Shown piece by piece: positions 601 to 11,760 of a stretch of DNA of 11,760 nucleotides. Each line of letters begins with the position of its first letter. Position 1 is the first letter of the stretch. Below the pieces are notes generated by a model. It had not been told where the DNA came from. It worked only from the letters and a program-made list of their open reading frames with translations, and searched no databases. Position numbers and translations under genes: made by a program. Source of the DNA: a virus; the UHGV virus genome UHGV-1590541. One strand, 5' to 3'.

Positions 601-1587
601 CTATTTAAGAATAAAACGGTATTTACTGTCAGGAGTGCTTTGCTGATCAAGTAGCAGTGAACGACATGGAGCAGTCAAAACCCGAGCATAACTACCATCA
701 GGGCTTATGTTAATGTAACAAACCTTGCCCTTAACACTATAATTTTCGGGGACGGATGCCTTTGCTGATACAGTAAATTTAAGGGTATGCCAGCCCGTTT
801 TTTGCTTGTAGCTTGAAACCGAATGGAAATCATCTGAGTACTTATTTAACCCTGGAAACATGCTGCGCAGTGCGGGGATGGAATCTTCTATTATTTTATC
901 GTTGGTTTTAATGTTAAAAACGCTGGTTTCAGTAGAAGCTACTGCTTTGGCATTTCCCCATTTACCAGCGAACACAATCATTCCCACGAAAAATATTGCT
1001 ACAAGAACTAACACTCCCCCCAACACTACTACATGAGGCTTCCGGCTTCTGGTTGGTACAGTTGCGACTGATTTTGCACCGCTTTCCGATGGAGGTGATA
1101 GAGTTTTACTCTCATCACGAATATTCAGCAGATCATCAAAATAACCAAACACAGCCTGCAACTGCTCTTTGTCTAGGCCTTTAAGATGGGTTGTACCGAA
1201 ATGCTTCAGACAGTATCTGTCACGGTCAAGACGATACCCAGGGTCAGTAAGCGCCATTATTTTGCTGACCAGAAGATTACAGTCCTTCATATTCTGGATC
1301 TGTTGTGCATATCTCTGAAGGATCTCAACCGCACCATGATAATCAGCCGCAGTCATTTCATTAACTGTTTTGGTATTAAGTTTCGTGTGGATCGTCATCC
1401 ATAGCTCGCGCTTACTTTCCCCCAGATCAACCAATTCATCCATCAATCTGTGTAAATCGCGTTTTTGCAGCAACGAAATTGGTTGCTGGGCCGAAGGAAG
1501 TATGTCAGCAGAATAGTTATGAATGGTAACATCACCGCTGACAACGTTACCCACATCCCCGTTAACTGTTTGCTTCTCTTTACTCAT
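601..1587 (-). CDS. Single-pass membrane protein of unknown function (328 aa), co-transcribed with the prophage repressor
   Basis: ATG at 1587 overlaps the repressor stop (ATGA, 1584-1587). One predicted TM helix at about aa 185-207 (VVVLGGVLVLVAIFFVGMIVFAG) preceded by basic RSRKPH, implying N-in topology. The C-terminal domain of about 120 aa carries two Cys. No family recognised by eye. Lower GC than the phage core. Confidence 0.8.
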   Translation of the reverse strand: MSKEKQTVNGDVGNVVSGDVTIHNYSADILPSAQQPISLLQKRDLHRLMDELVDLGESKRELWMTIHTKLNTKTVNEMTAADYHGAVEILQRYAQQIQNMKDCNLLVSKIMALTDPGYRLDRDRYCLKHFGTTHLKGLDKEQLQAVFGYFDDLLNIRDESKTLSPPSESGAKSVATVPTRSRKPHVVVLGGVLVLVAIFFVGMIVFAGKWGNAKAVASTETSVFNIKTNDKIIEDSIPALRSMFPGLNKYSDDFHSVSSYKQKTGWHTLKFTVSAKASVPENYSVKGKVCYINISPDGSYARVLTAPCRSLLLDQQSTPDSKYRFILK

Positions 1588-2009: not shown

Positions 2010-2095
2010 ATAAACCTCATTGACAATGAGAACAATAGTTCTCATAATCTATCACATATAAAACAAACATCATTGCATCAACAAAGGAGACAACA
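2010..2095. promoter_or_regulatory. Divergent immunity control region: candidate operators plus rightward sigma70 early promoter
   Basis: Perfect palindrome CTCATTG-A-CAATGAG (2016-2030) overlapping a second dyad GAGAAC-AATA-GTTCTC (2028-2043). TTGACA (2020-2025), 17-bp spacer, CATAAT (2043-2048) facing the Ner-like gene. CACATAT motif at 2053-2059. Confidence 0.5.
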
Positions 2096-2284
2096 ATGAC
2101 TTCCGAACAAGTTAAAAATCTCTTCCGTCAGCGTGGTATCACGTTTACCCGCTGGGCCGAAGAACACGGCTACAGCCGCAATGAGGTCTATCGTGTTCTC
2201 AATGGACAGACCAAAGCTCGTTACGGCAAAGCCCATGAAATTGCCGTAAAACTGGGATTAAAACCCACGTCAAATGCGGCATAA
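2096..2284 (+). CDS. ner: Ner/Cro-like small DNA-binding regulator (62 aa)
   Basis: AGGAG RBS 6 nt upstream of ATG. Position is divergent from the repressor at the head of the early operon. Sequence RWAEEHGYSRNEVYRVLNGQ...AHEIAVKLGL looks like a small HTH protein. Assignment to Ner rather than another Cro-like family rests mainly on synteny. Confidence 0.7.
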   Translation: MTSEQVKNLFRQRGITFTRWAEEHGYSRNEVYRVLNGQTKARYGKAHEIAVKLGLKPTSNAA

Positions 2285-2336: not shown

Positions 2337-2645
2337 ATGAGTAAAGTAAATATTTCCAGTTCTGGGACCCGCATCCTACGTGTACTCAAAGCTCTACGCG
2401 GTCATGCTCTGAACGGTGTTTCTAACGGTGAACTGGCATCAGCCCTGGGGGAGTCCCCGGCGAATATCAATCGAGCACTTAATACCCTTATTGAAGAGGG
2501 ACTGGCCATGAAATTAGAGAACGGACGTTTCGCACCGGGAATCCAGTTACTACAGATCGCCATGGCTCACAGTCACGAGATGGCGCGTGCACAGGATCGT
2601 ATTAACGAAATCAACCAACGAGTTATTTCAGGTAGTCGTTTGTAA
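2337..2645 (+). CDS. Small winged-HTH protein, IclR-N-terminal-like (about 102 aa; longest ORF starts at 2274)
   Basis: RILRVLKALRGHALNGVSNGELASALGESPANINRALNTLIEEGL resembles the IclR-type HTH domain; no effector domain follows. The ATG at 2337 lies downstream of the repeat-containing spacer, whereas ATG 2274 overlaps the ner stop. Confidence 0.65.
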   Translation: MSKVNISSSGTRILRVLKALRGHALNGVSNGELASALGESPANINRALNTLIEEGLAMKLENGRFAPGIQLLQIAMAHSHEMARAQDRINEINQRVISGSRL

Positions 2646-2655
2646 GGAGTAATCA

Positions 2656-3570
2656 ATGGGACGCACCAAATCACCCGTTAACACTGAACTGAATGTTGAG
2701 GTTCCGCTGTCAGATAACATCAATGTCAATTTGAACGCTATGACACAGCATCGCATGGAAATTATGCAGCAGTTTGGTGATGGACTGCCTTATGAACGTG
2801 ATCGCATTGTTCACGAAGCACGTTTTTATATGGCGCAGAGTGCTGAATCTATGCTGGAAGCGGGTAAGCGGCTGATCATCTTAAAAGAAAATGAGCCACA
2901 CGGTGATTTTACAAACATTTTAGAAAATGAACTCGGACTTGCACCACAAGTTGCTCGCCGCATGATGCAAGCCAGTATGAAGTTTTTGGGAGAAGGTGAT
3001 GAGCCAACAAAACGCTCAACGTTGAGCGTTTTGGGGAAAGCCAAACTGTACGACCTGATGGTTCTGGATAATGAAGAACTTGATGAATTGGCCGACGGCG
3101 GCACAGTTGCCGGCCTGACGCTTGACGACGTTGATCGCATGTCAGTACGTGAATTGCGTCAGGCCCTGCGCGAAGCGCGCGAAACCAACGCAGCACAACA
3201 GCGCGTACTCGCCGACAAAAATGAAAAAATAGATTCACTCTCCACCAGACTGGAGAAGAAATCCCGTATTCAGCCGCCTGAGCCTGATGAGGAGGTTAAG
3301 AAGCTGCGGGCGGAAGTAACAGCATTAGCGGTTGAGGCGGAATCTGCTATCGCCGTCCGACTGTCCAGCGCTTTTGAGACGCTGTGCGCATATTGTGCTG
3401 AAAACATGATTGATACCCCCAGAGACTTCATGGCAGGCCTGGTCTGTCAACTGGAAAGCACAGCGCGTAGCCTGCGCTCCACATTTGACCTGCCGGACGA
3501 GCCAACAGGCAATGCAGCGCCTTCATGGCTGACTGAGCCGACGCCACAGATTAACGGGCTGGAGGCATAA
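2656..3570 (+). CDS. Hypothetical early protein (304 aa), acidic with predicted coiled-coil segments
   Basis: AAGGAG RBS. Stop at 3570 lies 3 nt before the transposase start. No domain recognised with confidence (possibly a DUF3102-like phage protein, from memory only). Confidence 0.8.
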   Translation: MGRTKSPVNTELNVEVPLSDNINVNLNAMTQHRMEIMQQFGDGLPYERDRIVHEARFYMAQSAESMLEAGKRLIILKENEPHGDFTNILENELGLAPQVARRMMQASMKFLGEGDEPTKRSTLSVLGKAKLYDLMVLDNEELDELADGGTVAGLTLDDVDRMSVRELRQALREARETNAAQQRVLADKNEKIDSLSTRLEKKSRIQPPEPDEEVKKLRAEVTALAVEAESAIAVRLSSAFETLCAYCAENMIDTPRDFMAGLVCQLESTARSLRSTFDLPDEPTGNAAPSWLTEPTPQINGLEA

Positions 3571-3573
3571 CCA

Positions 3574-5343
3574 ATGAATGCTGCCCTGACTGAACGACTG
3601 GTTTATGTCGCCCGCGCGGCACGTGACGCGGGGCATGGTAAACGCGGTGCAATATACGACGCTGCCTGTGCTGAACTTGGCATGTCCCGCGCCACTCTGC
3701 TGCGCAGGCTGAAGGAGGTCTCTGTGACTGATAAACGCAAAAAACGCGCCGATGCCGGGCGCAGCGCCCTGACCCGCGACGAAGCCGCGCTGATATCTGC
3801 CACACTGCGTGAGGCCACCCGCAAGAACGGTAAGCGTCTCTATTCCATCGCAGATGCAGTGGAAACCCTGCGGGCTAACGGCTTTATCACCGCAGGCAGA
3901 ACAGATGAAACCACCAGTGAGTTTTTCCCGTTGTCTGAAGATGCCATCAGCCGTGCTCTGCGTAACTATGGCCTGCCCCCGGAACAACTGGATGCCCCTG
4001 CACCACATACCGAAGTGGCCAGTCTGCATCCCAATCATGTCTGGCAGATTGACGCCTCACTCTGCACGCTTTACTACCTGAGCAATGGACATAAAGGGCT
4101 GCAGGTGATGGACAGCGCGAAGTTCTACAAGAACAAGCCCGCTAACCTTGCCCGTATCGCCAGTGACCGCGTGTGGAGTTACGAGATTACCGACCATGCC
4201 AGCGGCTGGATTTACGTTGAGTATGTGACGGGCGCGGAATCAGGTGAGAACCTGTGTTCTGTGCTTATCAACGCCATGCAGGAGCGTGGCGGCGCAGACG
4301 TGCTGCACGGCGTGCCGAAAATACTCTATCTCGACCCCGGCTCGGCAAACACCGCGGGTATGACGAAAAACATGTGCCGCTCACTGGGCATCGACCTGAT
4401 AGCGCACAAGCCGCATAACGCCCGCGCCACCGGACAGGTGGAAAAGGCGCGTGACATTATCGAACGCAAGCTGGAGCCGGGTCTGAAGTTCCGGCCGGTT
4501 CACGGTCTGGAAGAACTCAACGCGCTGGCCGCGAAATGGCGCAGCCACTTTAACGCCACGGCTGTTCACAGCCGCCACGGTAAAACCCGCACGGATATCT
4601 GGCTGAAGATTACTGCTGAGCAGCTGAAAAAAGCGCCTTCCGTTGAGGTATGTCGTGAACTGGCTGTGGCGGCACCAGAACTCCGCAAAGTCACGCCAAA
4701 ACTTCGTGTCTCGTTCCGGGGCACTGAATTTGACGTATCAACGGTACCGGGCGTACTGGTTGGTGAAAAACTGATGATTACCCGTAACCCATGGCGCAGC
4801 GATGTGGCACAGGTGGTTCTGACCGGTGAGGACGGCCACGAGACGTTCTTCCTGGTCGAAGAGGTCAGAAAGAACGAGTTTGGCTTTGCTGAAGGCGCGG
4901 CGGTATTTGGCGAAAGTTACAAAGCCCTGCCGGAAACCCCGGCACAGATGGCGGCAAAAGAAACCGAAGCGCTGGTTACCGGTACAGACAACGCCGCAGA
5001 TGCAGCCGCCGCACGCAAGGCGAAGGCGCTGCCGTTCGGCGGGCGGCTTGACCCGTATAAACATATCGACGACACCACACTTCCGGCCTATATGCCGAAG
5101 CGTGGTCAGGCCTCTGACGTACGCGGGCCGCGCACTGAACAACGTCCCATGACTCATGTGGAGGCCGCGAAAGCCCTGCGCGATAAGTTCAGCGCCGACG
5201 GCCTTACCTGGACGCCGGAACATTACCGCCAGTTAACGGCACAGTACCCGGACGGCGTACCGGAAGCCGCACTGGATGAAGTCATGGCCACGCTGACCAC
5301 ACCGGCCCGCAGCAGTGTTATCAGCATTGTTAACGGCAACTGA
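3574..5343 (+). CDS. DDE transposase (retroviral-integrase/rve-like catalytic core), functional analogue of Mu A (589 aa)
   Basis: GGAGG RBS. N-terminal HTH-like region, then candidate catalytic residues in HVWQIDASL, KILYLDPGSANTA and GQVEKARDIIERKLE, matching D..D..E spacing of rve-type transposases. Followed directly by an AAA+ ATPase, as in transposable phages. Confidence 0.9.
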   Translation: MNAALTERLVYVARAARDAGHGKRGAIYDAACAELGMSRATLLRRLKEVSVTDKRKKRADAGRSALTRDEAALISATLREATRKNGKRLYSIADAVETLRANGFITAGRTDETTSEFFPLSEDAISRALRNYGLPPEQLDAPAPHTEVASLHPNHVWQIDASLCTLYYLSNGHKGLQVMDSAKFYKNKPANLARIASDRVWSYEITDHASGWIYVEYVTGAESGENLCSVLINAMQERGGADVLHGVPKILYLDPGSANTAGMTKNMCRSLGIDLIAHKPHNARATGQVEKARDIIERKLEPGLKFRPVHGLEELNALAAKWRSHFNATAVHSRHGKTRTDIWLKITAEQLKKAPSVEVCRELAVAAPELRKVTPKLRVSFRGTEFDVSTVPGVLVGEKLMITRNPWRSDVAQVVLTGEDGHETFFLVEEVRKNEFGFAEGAAVFGESYKALPETPAQMAAKETEALVTGTDNAADAAAARKAKALPFGGRLDPYKHIDDTTLPAYMPKRGQASDVRGPRTEQRPMTHVEAAKALRDKFSADGLTWTPEHYRQLTAQYPDGVPEAALDEVMATLTTPARSSVISIVNGN

Positions 5344-5353
5344 GGAGGGAAAC

Positions 5354-6520
5354 ATGCTGGTACTGAAGCAGCAACTGAAAGAGGCCCGTATTCCACAGGC
5401 GGTGGTGGCGAGAGCTGTCGATGTTTCTGAGGCCACGCTGGCCCAGATTGTGAATCATAACGCGTGGCCCCGCACCAGCCCCGGAGAAGTGCGCCGGCGT
5501 CTTGCGTCCTGGCTGGAAAGTCAGGGGATTGATACAACGAAGAGTTTTGATGCTGTACAGGGCGCGGCCACGCCCCGTACAGCGGGTACCACAGATAAAA
5601 CGAGCCTCAGTGAGGAAGAGAATATGTTACTCAAAAAACAGGTGTTATTTCCAGCAACCAAAAAAGCGTTTGGTCTTTTCCGTGACCCGTTCGCCGACGA
5701 AGCCATGCAGGGTTCTGATGATGTGTTCACCACCCCGGACATTCGCTACGTGCGTGAGGCGCTGTACCAGACAGCCCGTCATGGTGGGTTTATGGCCGTC
5801 ATCGGTGAGTCCGGTGCGGGTAAATCCACGCTGCGCCGCGACCTGACTGAACGTATCAACCGCGAGAATGCGCCGGTAATTGTTATCGAGCCATACATCA
5901 TCGCTATGGAAGACAACGATGTGAAAGGGAAAACCCTGAAGGCAGCAGCTATTGCCGAAGCCATTATCAGTACCATCGCACCACTGGAAAGCATCAGACG
6001 CAGTCAGGACGCCCGTTTTCGCCAGTTGCATCGCGTCCTGAAAGACAGCAGCCAGGCGGGGTTCAGCCACGTTCTGGTGATTGAGGAGGCCCACAGTCTG
6101 CCCATTCCGACACTGAAACACCTCAAACGCTTTTTTGAGCTGGAGTCCGGTTTCAAAAAACTGCTGTCCATCGTGCTGATTGGCCAGCCGGAACTGGCGA
6201 CAAAACTGTCTGAACGCAATATGGAAGTCCGTGAAGTCGTTCAGCGCTGTGAGGTGGTCGAACTTCTGCCTCTGGACAATAACCTTGAAGAATTTCTGAC
6301 GTTCAAACTGCAACGGGCCGGTAAACAGCTGACGGACATTATGGACGCCGGTGCAGTGGATGCCATACGTGCCCGCCTGAGCAATCCGGGAAGTCACCGT
6401 AAAAATATGGTCAGCCTGCTGTATCCGCTGGCCGTCAGTAACCTGGTAATAGCCGCCATGAATCTGGCCGCTGAAATCGGGGTTCCACAGGTCAACGCTG
6501 ACGTTGTCAAAGGGGTTTAA
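5354..6520 (+). CDS. AAA+ ATPase transposition helper protein (MuB / TniB-like), N-terminal HTH (longest ORF starts at 5315)
   Basis: Walker A GESGAGKST and Walker B-like VLVIEEAH. GAGGAGGG RBS immediately upstream of ATG 5354, 11 nt after the transposase stop. Confidence 0.9.
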   Translation: MLVLKQQLKEARIPQAVVARAVDVSEATLAQIVNHNAWPRTSPGEVRRRLASWLESQGIDTTKSFDAVQGAATPRTAGTTDKTSLSEEENMLLKKQVLFPATKKAFGLFRDPFADEAMQGSDDVFTTPDIRYVREALYQTARHGGFMAVIGESGAGKSTLRRDLTERINRENAPVIVIEPYIIAMEDNDVKGKTLKAAAIAEAIISTIAPLESIRRSQDARFRQLHRVLKDSSQAGFSHVLVIEEAHSLPIPTLKHLKRFFELESGFKKLLSIVLIGQPELATKLSERNMEVREVVQRCEVVELLPLDNNLEEFLTFKLQRAGKQLTDIMDAGAVDAIRARLSNPGSHRKNMVSLLYPLAVSNLVIAAMNLAAEIGVPQVNADVVKGV

Positions 6521-6819: not shown

Positions 6820-7350
6820 ATGGCAAAAAGTACAAAAGGTGCAAAACGTATCAAGGCCGCAGCAGCACTCTGGGTGCCGGGGACACGTGAAGAGGTCATT
6901 GAGGGAATCAGACTACTCGGTGACGCACAACGTGAACTGGTCAGGGCTGAAACAGAAATGAATGACGCCATTGGCGATATCACCGCACGTTATGCCCCGC
7001 TCACCGAGAGCCTGAAAAAACGCATGGCCGAACTGCAGTCCGGTATTCAGACATGGTGTGAGGCACACCGTGATGAACTGACCGGCAACGGGAAGGTGAA
7101 GTTCGCTAACCTCACCACCGGCGAGGTGCAGTGGCGAAACCGTCCGCCATCAGTCAGTATCCGTGGGGCGGATAATGTTATTGAATTACTGAGACGTCTG
7201 GGGCTTGAGCGCTTTATTCGTGTAAAAGAGGAAATAAATAAAGACGCTATCCTGAATGAAAAAGAGGCCGTGAAAAATATTCCCGGTATTTCCATTAAAA
7301 GCGACATTGAGGATTTTTCAATAATTCCTTTTGAGCAGGATGTGCAGTAA
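6820..7350 (+). CDS. gam: Host-nuclease inhibitor protein Gam (Mu Gam family, Ku-like DNA-end-binding)
   Basis: 176 aa. Long collinear matches to Mu Gam as I remember it: MAK..KRIK.AAA..VP at the N-terminus, ETEMNDAI, WCEA.RDELT, RPPSVSIRG, LERLGL.RFIR.K.EINKEAIL and a C-terminal IEDFSIIPFEQ. Confidence 0.95.
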   Translation: MAKSTKGAKRIKAAAALWVPGTREEVIEGIRLLGDAQRELVRAETEMNDAIGDITARYAPLTESLKKRMAELQSGIQTWCEAHRDELTGNGKVKFANLTTGEVQWRNRPPSVSIRGADNVIELLRRLGLERFIRVKEEINKDAILNEKEAVKNIPGISIKSDIEDFSIIPFEQDVQ

Positions 7351-9551: not shown

Positions 9552-10001
9552 ATGCAGAAAAAACGCCTGATACAGCTTATCCATATTGCCCGTAATGAAC
9601 TGGGTATGGATGAAGACACCTACCGCCAGATGTTACAGGGGCTGACCGGTAAAGCCTCAACCAAAGGAATGGATACCACACAACTAAACTGCGTGCTGGA
9701 ATCCATGAAAAAGAAAGGCTTTCGCGTTAAACCAGCCAGAAAAGCCAGCTCCGGTTTACCGCTGGATAACCATCCGCAGTCCAGGAAAATTCGTGCGCTA
9801 TGGCTTGAAATGGCTGCTGCCGGCATTGTTCGTGACCGTTCAGAAAATGCATTAGCGAGGTGGATCAAGCGGGAAACGGGCATCAGCGCCCTGCGCTGGC
9901 TCAGTACTGAACAGGCAAGCAGTGTTATTGAGAAACTGAAGAAGTGGCAGCGCAGAGCTGCGGGAGTCAAACATGAGCGACCTGAATCAGTTTCGAAGTA
10001 A
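9552..10001 (+). CDS. gemA: GemA-like regulatory protein (Mu gp16 family, DUF1018)
   Basis: AGGAG RBS. LIQLIHIARNELGMDEDTYRQML..LTGKAS and RKIRALWLEMAAAGIV resemble the Mu gp16/GemA family. Sits immediately upstream of and overlapping mor, as in Mu. Confidence 0.8.
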   Translation: MQKKRLIQLIHIARNELGMDEDTYRQMLQGLTGKASTKGMDTTQLNCVLESMKKKGFRVKPARKASSGLPLDNHPQSRKIRALWLEMAAAGIVRDRSENALARWIKRETGISALRWLSTEQASSVIEKLKKWQRRAAGVKHERPESVSK

Positions 10002-10362
10002 GGGGCCGGAACTCCTGGTGGAACTGGCACAGCATACCTCTGAGACCGTTCGCGAGATTATTGATATTGAGCCCGAAGTTGCCGACCAGATTGGTCAGGC
10101 CGTCGCGAACCGAATGATGCAGGTCTGGGGCGGGCAAAACGTTTATTTCCCGATGGGCATGGTATGGAAGGTCAGTCAGCGCGACCGGGAAATCTTCAGG
10201 GAGTTTAACGGACGCAACCACCACGAACTGGCCCGCAAATTTGGTGTTTCGCTTCAGTGGGTCTACAGCGTGGTTAAGCGGGTAAGAAAAGAAGAACTGG
10301 ATCGGATGCAGGGCAAGCTATTTGCTGATGAACCCGATGCAGATACGGAGAAAAAAGAGTAA
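9973..10362 (+). CDS. mor: Mor-family transcription activator (middle operon regulator)
   Basis: 129 aa, same length as Mu Mor. C-terminal half (VWGGQNVYFPMG...FREFNGRNHHELARKFGVSLQWVYSVVKRVRK) aligns closely with the Mu Mor HTH region as I remember it. Confidence 0.9.
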   Translation: MSDLNQFRSKGPELLVELAQHTSETVREIIDIEPEVADQIGQAVANRMMQVWGGQNVYFPMGMVWKVSQRDREIFREFNGRNHHELARKFGVSLQWVYSVVKRVRKEELDRMQGKLFADEPDADTEKKE

Positions 10363-10391
10363 TATCTGCAATCAGGCTGGCGCGAGTTCTG

Positions 10392-10448
<57 letters not shown>

Positions 10449-10449
10449 A

Positions 10450-10525
<76 letters not shown>

Positions 10526-10776: not shown

Positions 10777-11760
10777 TTACATATATGCAGCTCCCATCAC
10801 TTCTTCTGGTGAAATCTCTTTATCGTTGGTTAGCAATACCCAGAGCACTCTGGCATTTTTGTTGTTCAGCGCTACGGTGGCAACATTTTTATTCCGCCGC
10901 GAGACTGGTCTGCCCAGCCAGCTTTCCTGGACCTGTCTGCCCTTTCTGGCGTTTGACACTGTCTTCGCACCATGGAACAGTAGCGTTCTGATATAGACAT
11001 CGTCCCGTTTACTGATAGACCCCAGCGTGTTTTTACCTACGCTGAAGCACTGTCGGGGAACCAGTCCAAGCCATGCAGCAAGCTGACGCCGGTTTTTGAA
11101 GCCGATACTACCCGGTGCTGACAATTGCAGTGGTGGTAAGAATAGCAATCCCCGAAATGGTGGCAATTTTCCTGCACAGTTCGTCGTTCCCGACGTGTTC
11201 GTTGCTAACGGCTTCTATGGTTTCAATGTGTACGCTCAGTTGTTTCACATTTTCATTAGAGATAGGACGACAGCTGTCTGAACGGCATTGTTAAACAGTT
11301 TTCCGCGTCTTCAAGCAGGGCAGGGACATGACGACTGATCGCTACAGTGTCGGGCGGGAGAACGATGCCAAATTCAGCCAGTAATCCTCTGATCTGGTTT
11401 ATCTGCGCAGTCCTTGATTTAACAAACCCCGTCAGGGCACGATGAAAAGACAGTAATGACTACTGCTCAGGCGTCTTGATGCTGACAAACCGCATATTAG
11501 GTCGGGTAACGGCTTCACAGATGGCCTCGGCAGCAGCCATATCATTCTTGTTTGTTTTCACATATGGCTTTACAAATCGCGGGCATTAGTCTGACATTAT
11601 GCCCCTAAGTAGACAGCATTCTCACTAATGACGCGCTCCGGCGCAGACCTCCATCCCAATCCGACAGGAAGACATATTCGCGAAGAATACGGGCATCAGG
11701 GAACGTTTAATCCGTTTTCTGAGCTTAGATTTTTCTGTTCCTACCCAGACCGTGGATTTG
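10777..11760 (-). pseudogene. IS110-family (DEDD) transposase, decayed: multiple in-frame stops and frameshifts; N-terminus beyond window end
   Basis: Minus-strand translation gives segments in three frames that read collinearly like an IS110-family transposase: FFANMSSCRIGMEVCAGARH, PYVKTNKNDMAAAEAICEAVTRPNMRFVSIKTPEQ, IRGLLAEFGIV, ISGIAILTTTAIV, RRQLAAWLGLVPRQ...ISKRDDVYIRTLLFHGAKTV, VATVALNNKNARVLW. In-frame stops at 11622-11627 (TAG TGA), 11586-11588 (TAA) and 11460-11462 (TAG); frame changes near 11256 and near 11110-11125. Confidence 0.8.

Follow-up and report, generated by a model that had tools for sequence, protein, structure and literature searches.

Almost all that is known about the transposition of transposable phages comes from phage Mu. 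Mu carries an internal, non-terminal cis site, the enhancer (internal activation sequence, IAS), which is an operator region shared with the repressor and is read by the I-alpha module of the MuA transposase (HTH_Tnp_Mu_1). The B3/BcepMu group of transposable phages is common, has related prophages in Burkholderia, Pseudomonas, Salmonella and Photorhabdus, and uses a different, shorter transposase. Here we analysed UHGV virus genome UHGV-1590541, a stretch of 11,760 nucleotides (the window), which comprises the early half of a transposable prophage and the right end of that prophage. The two genes directly upstream of its transposase gene tnpA encode a 102-amino acid (aa) basic winged helix-turn-helix protein (wHTH; 2337-2645, plus strand) and a 304-aa protein with a DUF3102 helix-turn-helix (HTH) head and a transposase-matched helical tail (2656-3570, plus strand), which we call the adaptor. 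Our results suggest that a site within the adaptor gene may be bound by the adaptor itself, which would tether or regulate its cognate transposase TnpA there and have an enhancer-like role in transpososome assembly. We give this proposal slightly less than an even chance.

The proposed arrangement resembles the Mu enhancer and MuA I-alpha in having an internal, non-terminal cis site and, putatively, a DNA-binding module linked to the transposase. In Mu, enhancer reading is done by a module that is absent from the window TnpA (about 128 residues relative to phrog_310 and D3112 A). The DNA-binding module is here a separate protein, a putative TnpA partner through its co-varying tail, and not a transposase domain, and its fold family is DUF3102 and not the Mu DNA-binding domain. 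The site also differs, being a single perfect palindrome in a coding region and not an operator region shared with the repressor. An enhancer function would hold here by analogy with Mu.

Other known systems share parts of this arrangement. In the IS3 family (IS911), the gene for OrfA, an HTH and leucine zipper protein, directly precedes that for an rve transposase, through which OrfA presumably acts. The adaptor is likewise a small to medium HTH-plus-coiled-coil protein encoded immediately ahead of an rve-type transposase, but it has no frameshift fusion to the transposase, no sequence similarity to OrfA was detected, and its proposed site is internal and self-encoded, not in terminal inverted repeats. 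ParB/Spo0J, with parS inside spo0J, and KorB, with its palindromic OB operator, are related known systems too. The closest relatives are the corresponding pairs of BcepMu, B3 and phiE255, which are direct homologues in the same order (adaptor 39-53% and wHTH 33-57% identical) and show no difference in kind.

Results and Discussion

The adaptor and the palindrome in its gene

The original prediction had described the 304-aa protein as acidic and rich in coiled coils. Its isoelectric point (pI) of 4.75 and its AlphaFold model, all-helical with a pLDDT of 86.9 and long helices at residues 164-205, 210-249 and 256-276, bear this out. The profile search proposed there gave matches for both proteins; the adaptor matched DUF3102 (PF11300, residues 65-173) with 28.5 bits against a cut-off of 24.4 and phrog_1748 over residues 1-302 (8.4e-141), and 85 of 91 adaptor relatives also passed PF11300. 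The model predicts an HTH formed by helices 84-92 and 97-111. The codons of the second, the predicted recognition helix, lie at 2944-2988 (plus strand) and include the putative specificity residues R101 and R102. At the other end of the protein, the acidic disordered C-terminal tail carries a P-x-W motif (3520-3528, plus strand), which is a candidate docking motif. P.W was present in 180 of 243 distinct adaptor homologues and the listed exceptions keep a Trp near the C-terminus.

In a scan for close inverted repeats we found a perfect 26-bp palindrome, CAAAACGCTCAACGTTGAGCGTTTTG, at 3008-3033, which we propose to be the operator of the adaptor head. It lies about 350 bp into the adaptor gene and 540 bp upstream of tnpA, and covers codons 118-126, a low-confidence linker straight after the predicted HTH. 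The palindrome is single-copy in the window, and across the 37.5-kb prophage, in which no palindrome is longer, neither it nor its half-site was found anywhere else.

The palindrome was conserved in place but not in letters. A palindrome was found at the same codons in at least 179 of 255 distinct homologous genes when its arms had to measure 10 nt or more, and in 154 with a minimum of 12 nt. There were 143 distinct palindrome sequences, of the form yCAAA, a variable stretch, [AG]CG[TC], the complement of the variable stretch and TTTGr. Perfect arms of at least 12 nt were present in 111/261 adaptor genes and were nearly missing from the control genes (1/272 for tnpA, 0/257 for tnpB and 0/239 for wHTH). 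The central 4 nt were self-complementary in 148 of 170 palindromes, nearly always as ACGT or GCGC.

Similar palindromes occurred in heads of the JBD25 and L192 types. They were also present in DUF3102 genes of replicons that lack this transposase, namely phage-plasmids and a plasmid of the Firmicute Alicyclobacillus. Since the palindrome occurs with differing heads and in transposase-free DUF3102 genes, it belongs to the head module. The DUF3102 proteins outside transposable phages were encoded at 4899-5630 in locus L200, 4899-5630 in L201 and 4771-5670 in L202, and the palindrome was seen in L200 and L202. In the IncF phage-plasmids, the DUF3102 gene opens a rightward operon running into Mor and tail genes. 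In the Alicyclobacillus plasmid, it stands after the replication genes and before a gene for an ORF6C-domain protein.

A residue-to-base code between the recognition helix and the half-site

The identity of residue 101, which directly follows the invariant Ala100 in helix 97-111, was strongly associated with half-site positions 6-7 (mutual information z of 21-37). Q101 went with nGCG in 42 of 51 cases, most others having nACG, while R101 went with nCGn in 30/30 and A, V, H, F or T101 with nGTn in about 21/24. When residue 102 was L, V or M, the half-site had CAA or CAG (17/18). The residue-101 code was valid in both head subfamilies. Moreover, where two heads had different residues 101 but were otherwise 93-97% identical, the operator had changed to match, as in two Iodobacter phages, one with Q and AGCG and the other with R and ACGG. 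The window head has R101 with ACGC and the BcepMu head Q101 with AGCG; sites of the ACGC type read CAAAACGC... and those of the AGCG type, as in KP12, CAAAAGCG....

In a partial Mantel test the site followed the recognition helix (0.42) and not the flanking head segments (-0.08 and 0.14). We considered that the code might be an artefact of DNA repeats and rejected this, as half-site k-mers were no commoner in the helix-coding DNA than downstream of it. The codons for residues 100-102 were synonymous-diverse. With such varied codons, and with no repetition of half-site k-mers in the DNA that encodes the helix, the co-variation lies at the protein level. The self-complementary centre and the prediction of the half-site by residue 101 together point to duplex DNA that would be read by a symmetric dimer, rather than to a hairpin. 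Co-variation of recognition-helix residues with palindromic bases is a mark of sequence-specific HTH proteins with a dyad-symmetric operator, and by this comparison of sequences the adaptor shows it.

The adaptor tail follows the transposase

For the co-variation analysis we compared the pairwise divergence of protein segments across 170 non-redundant modules. The C-terminal half of the adaptor (176-304) followed TnpA with a Mantel rho of 0.81, a value that none of 300 permutations reached, and with a partial rho of 0.73 when TnpB, wHTH and the head were controlled for. This was stronger than the relation between TnpB and TnpA (rho 0.57, partial 0.28). Sliding windows over adaptor residues 196-285, encoded at 3241-3510 (plus strand), followed TnpA over its full length with a rho of 0.70-0.77. 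The head (residues 31-165) was an evolutionary block of its own, with a rho of 0.17 with TnpA and about 0.1 with its own tail, and mirror-tree analysis placed the switch between the blocks at residues ~170-195.

The two modules were also seen in individual phages. In L192-type phages, the adaptor and TnpA were swapped as a unit, while wHTH (87-89% identical) and TnpB (91-100%) were kept. The adaptor gene is mosaic among close relatives: that of phage KP12 has a window-like C-terminal half and a divergent N-terminal half, and that of phage PhiKM is the opposite. BcepMu gp10 and phiE255 gp41 differ in their heads but are nearly identical in their tails. The tail alone of L192-type proteins matched the DUF3102-family profile (hhalign, 97%). 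With JBD25 gp15, tblastn picked up only the tail and hhalign aligned the head weakly. Weak HTH signals were present in both the JBD25- and the L192-type heads.

Some relatives have extra small open reading frames (ORFs) inside this group of genes, none with a Pfam match. In PhiKM (L001, 6814-7131) and the L192-type phages (L192, 4651-5004), an ORF of 105-117 aa separates the adaptor gene from tnpA, and BcepMu has gp11 (70 aa; L004, 7449-7661) between the wHTH gene and gp10. The PhiKM insert coincides with a divergent adaptor tail.

Proposed role of the adaptor and alternative explanations

In our proposal, the DUF3102 head (residues ~31-165) would bind the palindrome at 3008-3033 as a symmetric dimer, and the helical tail (~196-285), together with the conserved C-terminal P-x-W tail, would pair with the cognate TnpA. 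The adaptor would thus keep TnpA at, or present it on, a single internal site that precedes tnpA by 540 bp, and adaptor and site would be the functional counterpart of the Mu enhancer and the N-terminal enhancer-binding domain of MuA. We infer here the binding of DNA by the head, the contact of the tail with TnpA and the enhancer-like consequence; given the first two, the adaptor would place or regulate TnpA at the internal site. A role of the pair in transposition or its regulation was among the functions that the original prediction had put forward, and it gains support from the co-variation of the C-terminal half with TnpA and from a head that appears to read a site in its own gene.

Several points weigh against this proposal. 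The whole case is built on co-variation and position. The helix codons and the palindrome are only about 50 bp apart, and co-inheritance inflates their association; the switches in near-identical backgrounds lessen this concern but do not remove it. PhiKM-type phages pair a 76%-identical tail with a 96-100%-identical TnpA, which means that tail and TnpA are separable at short range. A recombination hot spot at the conserved stretch coding for LDDIDRMSxRELR could partly explain both the co-variation of tail and TnpA and the boundary between the modules. With a pI of 4.75 overall and a head that is only slightly positive, the adaptor would be an unusual DNA binder. Since palindrome-bearing DUF3102 proteins also occur where this transposase is absent, the pair of head and site is a general module, and an enhancer-like role would be specific to the tail context. 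Finally, the wHTH protein showed no co-variation with the head, the tail, TnpA, TnpB, the repressor or gp16.

It is also possible, though we think it unlikely, that the adaptor is an autoregulator. The head on the palindrome would then be a roadblock or operator that throttles transcription into tnpA and tnpB, while the tail senses or titrates TnpA, which would give a homeostatic transposase level and not a part in transpososome assembly. The palindrome lies on the only transcript path to tnpA and there is one site per prophage, and the residue/half-site code backs binding equally well in both cases. In transposase-free phage-plasmids, palindrome-bearing DUF3102 proteins head an operon that ends in Mor, which fits a general regulatory module. 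However, a tail matched to the transposase would be superfluous in a pure autoregulator, and this tail follows TnpA closer than TnpB does. A consensus scan showed no promoter-like site beside the palindrome, and the autoregulator, too, is read from sequence. We favour the enhancer-like role because a roadblock leaves the transposase-matched tail unexplained; the two functions could coexist.

The palindrome might instead act as a structure, be it an RNA hairpin, a weak bidirectional intrinsic attenuator made of an A-tract, a GC stem and a T-tract, or a DNA cruciform, which limits transposase expression. Both proteins would then be ordinary early regulators and the code a by-product of linkage. 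The arms vary yet stay perfectly complementary, the predicted RNA hairpin has -20.7 kcal/mol (z = -3.6), and A-tract to T-tract polarity was found in 157 of 203 palindromes and the opposite in 4. G-U-compatible mismatches were also somewhat commoner than A-C mismatches (45 vs 24). Nevertheless, a hairpin loop has no need of the self-complementarity seen in the central 4 nt. Only 3-4 nt make up the T-run, which is part of the stem and pairs with the A-tract; our terminator scan between 1900 and 3700 was empty and there was no Rfam match. Structure alone does not predict a residue-101 code that holds in both head subfamilies and in near-identical backgrounds, and we regard this explanation as distinctly improbable.

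The architecture of the adaptor recalls KfrA, which has an N-terminal DNA-binding region and a long helical C-terminus, is about 300 aa long and is acidic, and the palindromic site within the adaptor gene recalls parS inside spo0J. A DNA-organising or segregation function, in which a ParB/KorB/KfrA-like centromere binder with the small wHTH as partner bridges the phage genome without a link to the transposase, seems very improbable all the same. Searches of Pfam and NCBIfam gave no ParB N-terminal domain and no ParA partner, which places the adaptor outside the ParB/KorB-type centromere binders, defined by a ParB N-terminal domain and a ParB-type HTH with a ParA partner; in addition, there is one site per genome and the tail follows TnpA. 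The host-takeover or anti-defence function that the original prediction also offered for these proteins at the head of the early operon has a very low probability in our estimate: expression of the pair is early, the larger protein is acidic and D3112-like phages have other genes at the equivalent position (three short ORFs, orf3-orf5), including host-directed ones, but such genes are usually variable, whereas this pair is near-invariant in position across Beta- and Gammaproteobacteria and beyond, the variable spacer sits upstream of it between gp16 and wHTH, the head seems to read a phage-borne site, the tail follows a phage protein, and nothing that we found points to the host.

Head/operator specificity has switched repeatedly, much as determinants of immunity or incompatibility diversify, and cross-talk between related prophages may thereby be limited. 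A broader view is conceivable, although rather doubtful. In it, the DNA-binding modules of the widespread DUF3102 family (~1650 clusters at 50% identity) would each have an operator within their own coding sequence and obey a simple residue-to-base code. Fused to a transposase-specific tail, such a module would serve B3/BcepMu-type phages as the subunit that binds the enhancer in trans, in a transposition machine of four proteins. Rapid switches of head and operator specificity would insulate co-resident transposable prophages from one another, as an analogue of heteroimmunity at the level of transposition. If the two further proteins and the internal palindrome belong to the transposition machinery of this group, there would be a second way for a 37-kb element to synapse and control its ends, a large DUF family would gain a function, and a protein/operator pair would be at hand that is compact, seemingly programmable and readable in its specificity code.

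The pair is part of a conserved four-gene cassette

The original prediction placed two genes between a ner-type gene and the transposase gene, and their coordinates and common orientation were confirmed exactly. It had regarded them as extra genes, inserted relative to Mu, and this view did not hold. Homologues stand in the same order ahead of the transposase in B3 (ORF14/ORF13), BcepMu (gp12/gp10) and phiE255 (gp42/gp41), and the same order was found in JBD25, phiSHP3, Bise and Mae-JY22. The synteny comparison across B3- and BcepMu-like phages that had been suggested thus shows a constant pair, which is not an insertion. We defined the cassette as a wHTH, a protein with a DUF3102-type tail, an rve TnpA of ~590 aa and an AAA_22 TnpB of ~390 aa on one strand, and the window has all of these at 2337-6520.

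In 80 genome loci seeded with DUF3102, the order wHTH-DUF3102-TnpA-TnpB was found on one strand wherever the contig permits, except for decayed copies from insect symbionts. The loci came from Enterobacterales, Burkholderiales, Pseudomonas, Neisseriales, Cellvibrio, a methanotroph and a spirochaete metagenome-assembled genome. Among viral contigs seeded with TnpA (38-100% identity), both genes were upstream in 189 of 191. One of the two exceptions is L303, where an 87-aa remnant of an adaptor tail (4302-4565) stands ahead of tnpA and abuts tail-fibre-like ORFs on the opposite strand; this element is rearranged or chimeric. What varies in the operon is the spacer from gp16 to the wHTH gene, which measures 0-1.7 kb.

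The transposases also differ from Mu in architecture. With Pfam, the window TnpA matched only rve, as did TnpA of B3 and BcepMu, and it aligned to phrog_310 from profile position 129 on. D3112 A has HTH_Tnp_Mu_1 at residues 8-125 plus Mu-transpos_C; neither PF02316 nor PF09299 was detected in the window TnpA, whereas D3112 A has both. D3112, with its Mu-type A and a short B protein, is also without the wHTH/DUF3102 pair. Because the window TnpA has no N-terminal enhancer-binding domain of the Mu kind, Mu is the wrong comparator. The differing TnpA architecture and the absence of the pair from D3112 mean that the comparison with Mu sets two different transposition modules side by side. This distribution indicates that wHTH, adaptor, TnpA and TnpB are an ancestral four-gene transposition cassette that defines the B3/BcepMu-type transposable phages.

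The genes themselves are already known and annotated, as DUF3102 and IclR-like HTH, with BcepMu gp10 and gp12 as equivalents, and RefSeq holds the pair of the E. coli prophage as WP_000533821.1 and WP_000049025.1. In the records and papers that we found they are functionally uncharacterised. The original prediction had named a match to well-characterised core proteins as what would speak against it; the two proteins are indeed conserved core proteins of this phage group, but not characterised ones. A 2023 transcriptome study of the B3-like phage Fc02 (PMC9936078) left most early-operon ORFs besides A, B, gemA and mor unassigned, these two among them. We found no functional work on either gene in the literature on DUF3102, BcepMu and Beetrevirus, and neither an operator inside the gene, nor the residue-to-base code, nor a split into head and tail with co-variation of the transposase was found in the searchable literature.

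The winged-HTH protein

The mechanical ORF of the wHTH gene opens at 2274. We place the start at ATG 2337, based on homologue alignments and on RefSeq WP_000049025.1, a 102-aa protein from an identical prophage. A good ribosome-binding site (RBS) had been predicted for each of the two genes; this is true for the adaptor gene, with GGAG 7-10 nt ahead of ATG 2656, but the wHTH gene has a weak GGAA only. An inverted repeat, TGGAAAT-N20-ATTTCCA (2319-2364), encloses the wHTH RBS and start codon and could hide the translation start. This repeat cannot exist in the KP12 type, whose wHTH gene overlaps the upstream gene.

The wHTH protein is basic (pI 10.7) and consists of an IclR-type DNA-binding domain and one C-terminal helix. 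It matched HTH_IclR (PF09339, residues 12-57) with 28.9 bits against a cut-off of 22 (9.6e-7) and phrog_1368 (1.7e-44), and a profile search matched the DNA-binding domains of TtgV (4.7e-6), KdgR and IclR. There was no Pfam or NCBIfam match to the IclR effector-binding domain (PF01614), in agreement with the earlier description as an HTH-only IclR-like protein. The protein shares the N-terminal winged HTH with IclR-family regulators but has no C-terminal effector domain. Since this domain is absent and the protein is only 102 aa long, it falls outside the IclR regulator family, and should be described by its HTH_IclR-like domain and not classed as an IclR-family regulator.

The wHTH gene precedes that of the adaptor in 189 of 191 modules, and the protein probably acts as a DNA-binding accessory or regulator made from the same operon. 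We rejected two more specific ideas. The wHTH protein and the DUF3102 head are not a co-adapted pair (rho ~0.2, partial rho 0.15). Nor is the wHTH protein a split-off homologue of the N-terminal domain of Mu and D3112 A, as BLASTP against D3112 A gave E = 11 and the fold classes differ; a likeness to that domain is possible as an analogy only. No positionally conserved palindrome was found in or around the wHTH gene.

Some adaptor homologues have an N-terminal extension of about 250 aa (P0205, P0235 and P0248, in loci L308, L309 and L311; also P0242 in L310, P0268 and P0168). In three proteins, it consists of repeated Cys-rich units, which are possibly zinc-binding. We considered the extension as a possible substitute for the wHTH protein. 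Among four contexts with an N-terminally extended adaptor, three were without a detectable upstream wHTH gene and one had it, which points both ways.

Early operon and prophage

An early-promoter-like site, TTGACA-17-CATAAT, lies at the head of the operon (2020-2048, plus strand) and agrees with the consensus at 11 of 12 positions; this is a match to consensus only. The first gene (2096-2284, plus strand) encodes a 62-aa Ner/Cro-like small HTH protein. It had been taken for ner, and the Ner/Cro-like HTH is right, but the protein belongs to the BcepMu gp16 family (TIGR04111, 2.8e-27; phrog_925, 1.3e-32) and is not Mu Ner. The wHTH and adaptor genes follow, and then those for TnpA (3574-5343, plus strand; 589 aa, rve core by Pfam, phrog_310) and the ExeA-like transposition ATPase TnpB (5354-6520, plus strand; 388 aa, AAA_22, PF13401, 3.6e-20; phrog_296, 8e-93). 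The junctions are 10 nt between the wHTH and adaptor genes and 3 nt between the adaptor gene and tnpA, short enough to be compatible with co-translation. A scan for GC-rich stem-loops followed by at least five T found no terminator-like site between 1900 and 3700. Given the promoter-like site at 2020-2048, the terminator-free stretch and the tight junctions, gp16, wHTH, DUF3102, tnpA and tnpB read as one operon. In a proteomics study of an E. coli strain that carries a prophage of this kind, the DUF3102 protein, the adjoining HTH protein and Gam were all detected (PMC9936078).

The 10-mer TATCACATAT is found on either side of the gp16 gene, at 2050-2059, directly after the -10 of the early promoter, and at 2307-2316, 20-30 nt ahead of the wHTH start, with a near copy at 2289-2299. 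The second copy keeps its position in many Enterobacterales loci. In the loci checked, the 10-mer was present together with the gp16 gene and absent where another Ner-like gene takes its place, and it is probably the operator of gp16 or of the repressor. We rejected it as an operator of the wHTH protein, as it is missing from loci with the same wHTH but another Ner-like gene.

The cI-like XRE repressor is encoded at 1584-2045 on the minus strand. A gene for a 328-aa protein (601-1587, minus strand) overlaps the repressor stop and is apparently co-transcribed with the repressor. The protein matches phrog_10002, has a hydrophobic segment and an N-terminus weakly like the flagellar regulator Flk (NF007987, 2.9e-12), and is a candidate for a membrane moron or exclusion protein expressed during lysogeny. 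Gam (6820-7350), GemA (9552-10001) and Mor (9973-10362) are encoded further downstream, and past mor there is an inverted repeat at 10370-10414 with a T-run in its spacer.

The element is an E. coli prophage of the BcepMu/B3 type. Of 5426 complete E. coli genomes, 125 carried at least 80% of the window, and the nearest deposited phages were Escherichia phage PhiKM (genus Bcepmuvirus, 94% identity), Phi06_2974 B and Klebsiella phage KP12. Similarity to other E. coli genomes breaks off at 10524 (...TCTAATCA), which is the end of the prophage, ending in ...CA. Subterminal TCTTCCCAT repeats at 10453 and 10473 and a third TTCCC at about 10496 are likely transposase-binding sites. Just beyond the prophage end, the host flank carries a fragment of an IS110/IS116/IS902-family insertion sequence (IS) transposase (10777-11166, minus strand; PF02371, 8.7e-11). 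Part of the window was matched by more than 4000 E. coli genomes, presumably through this flank.

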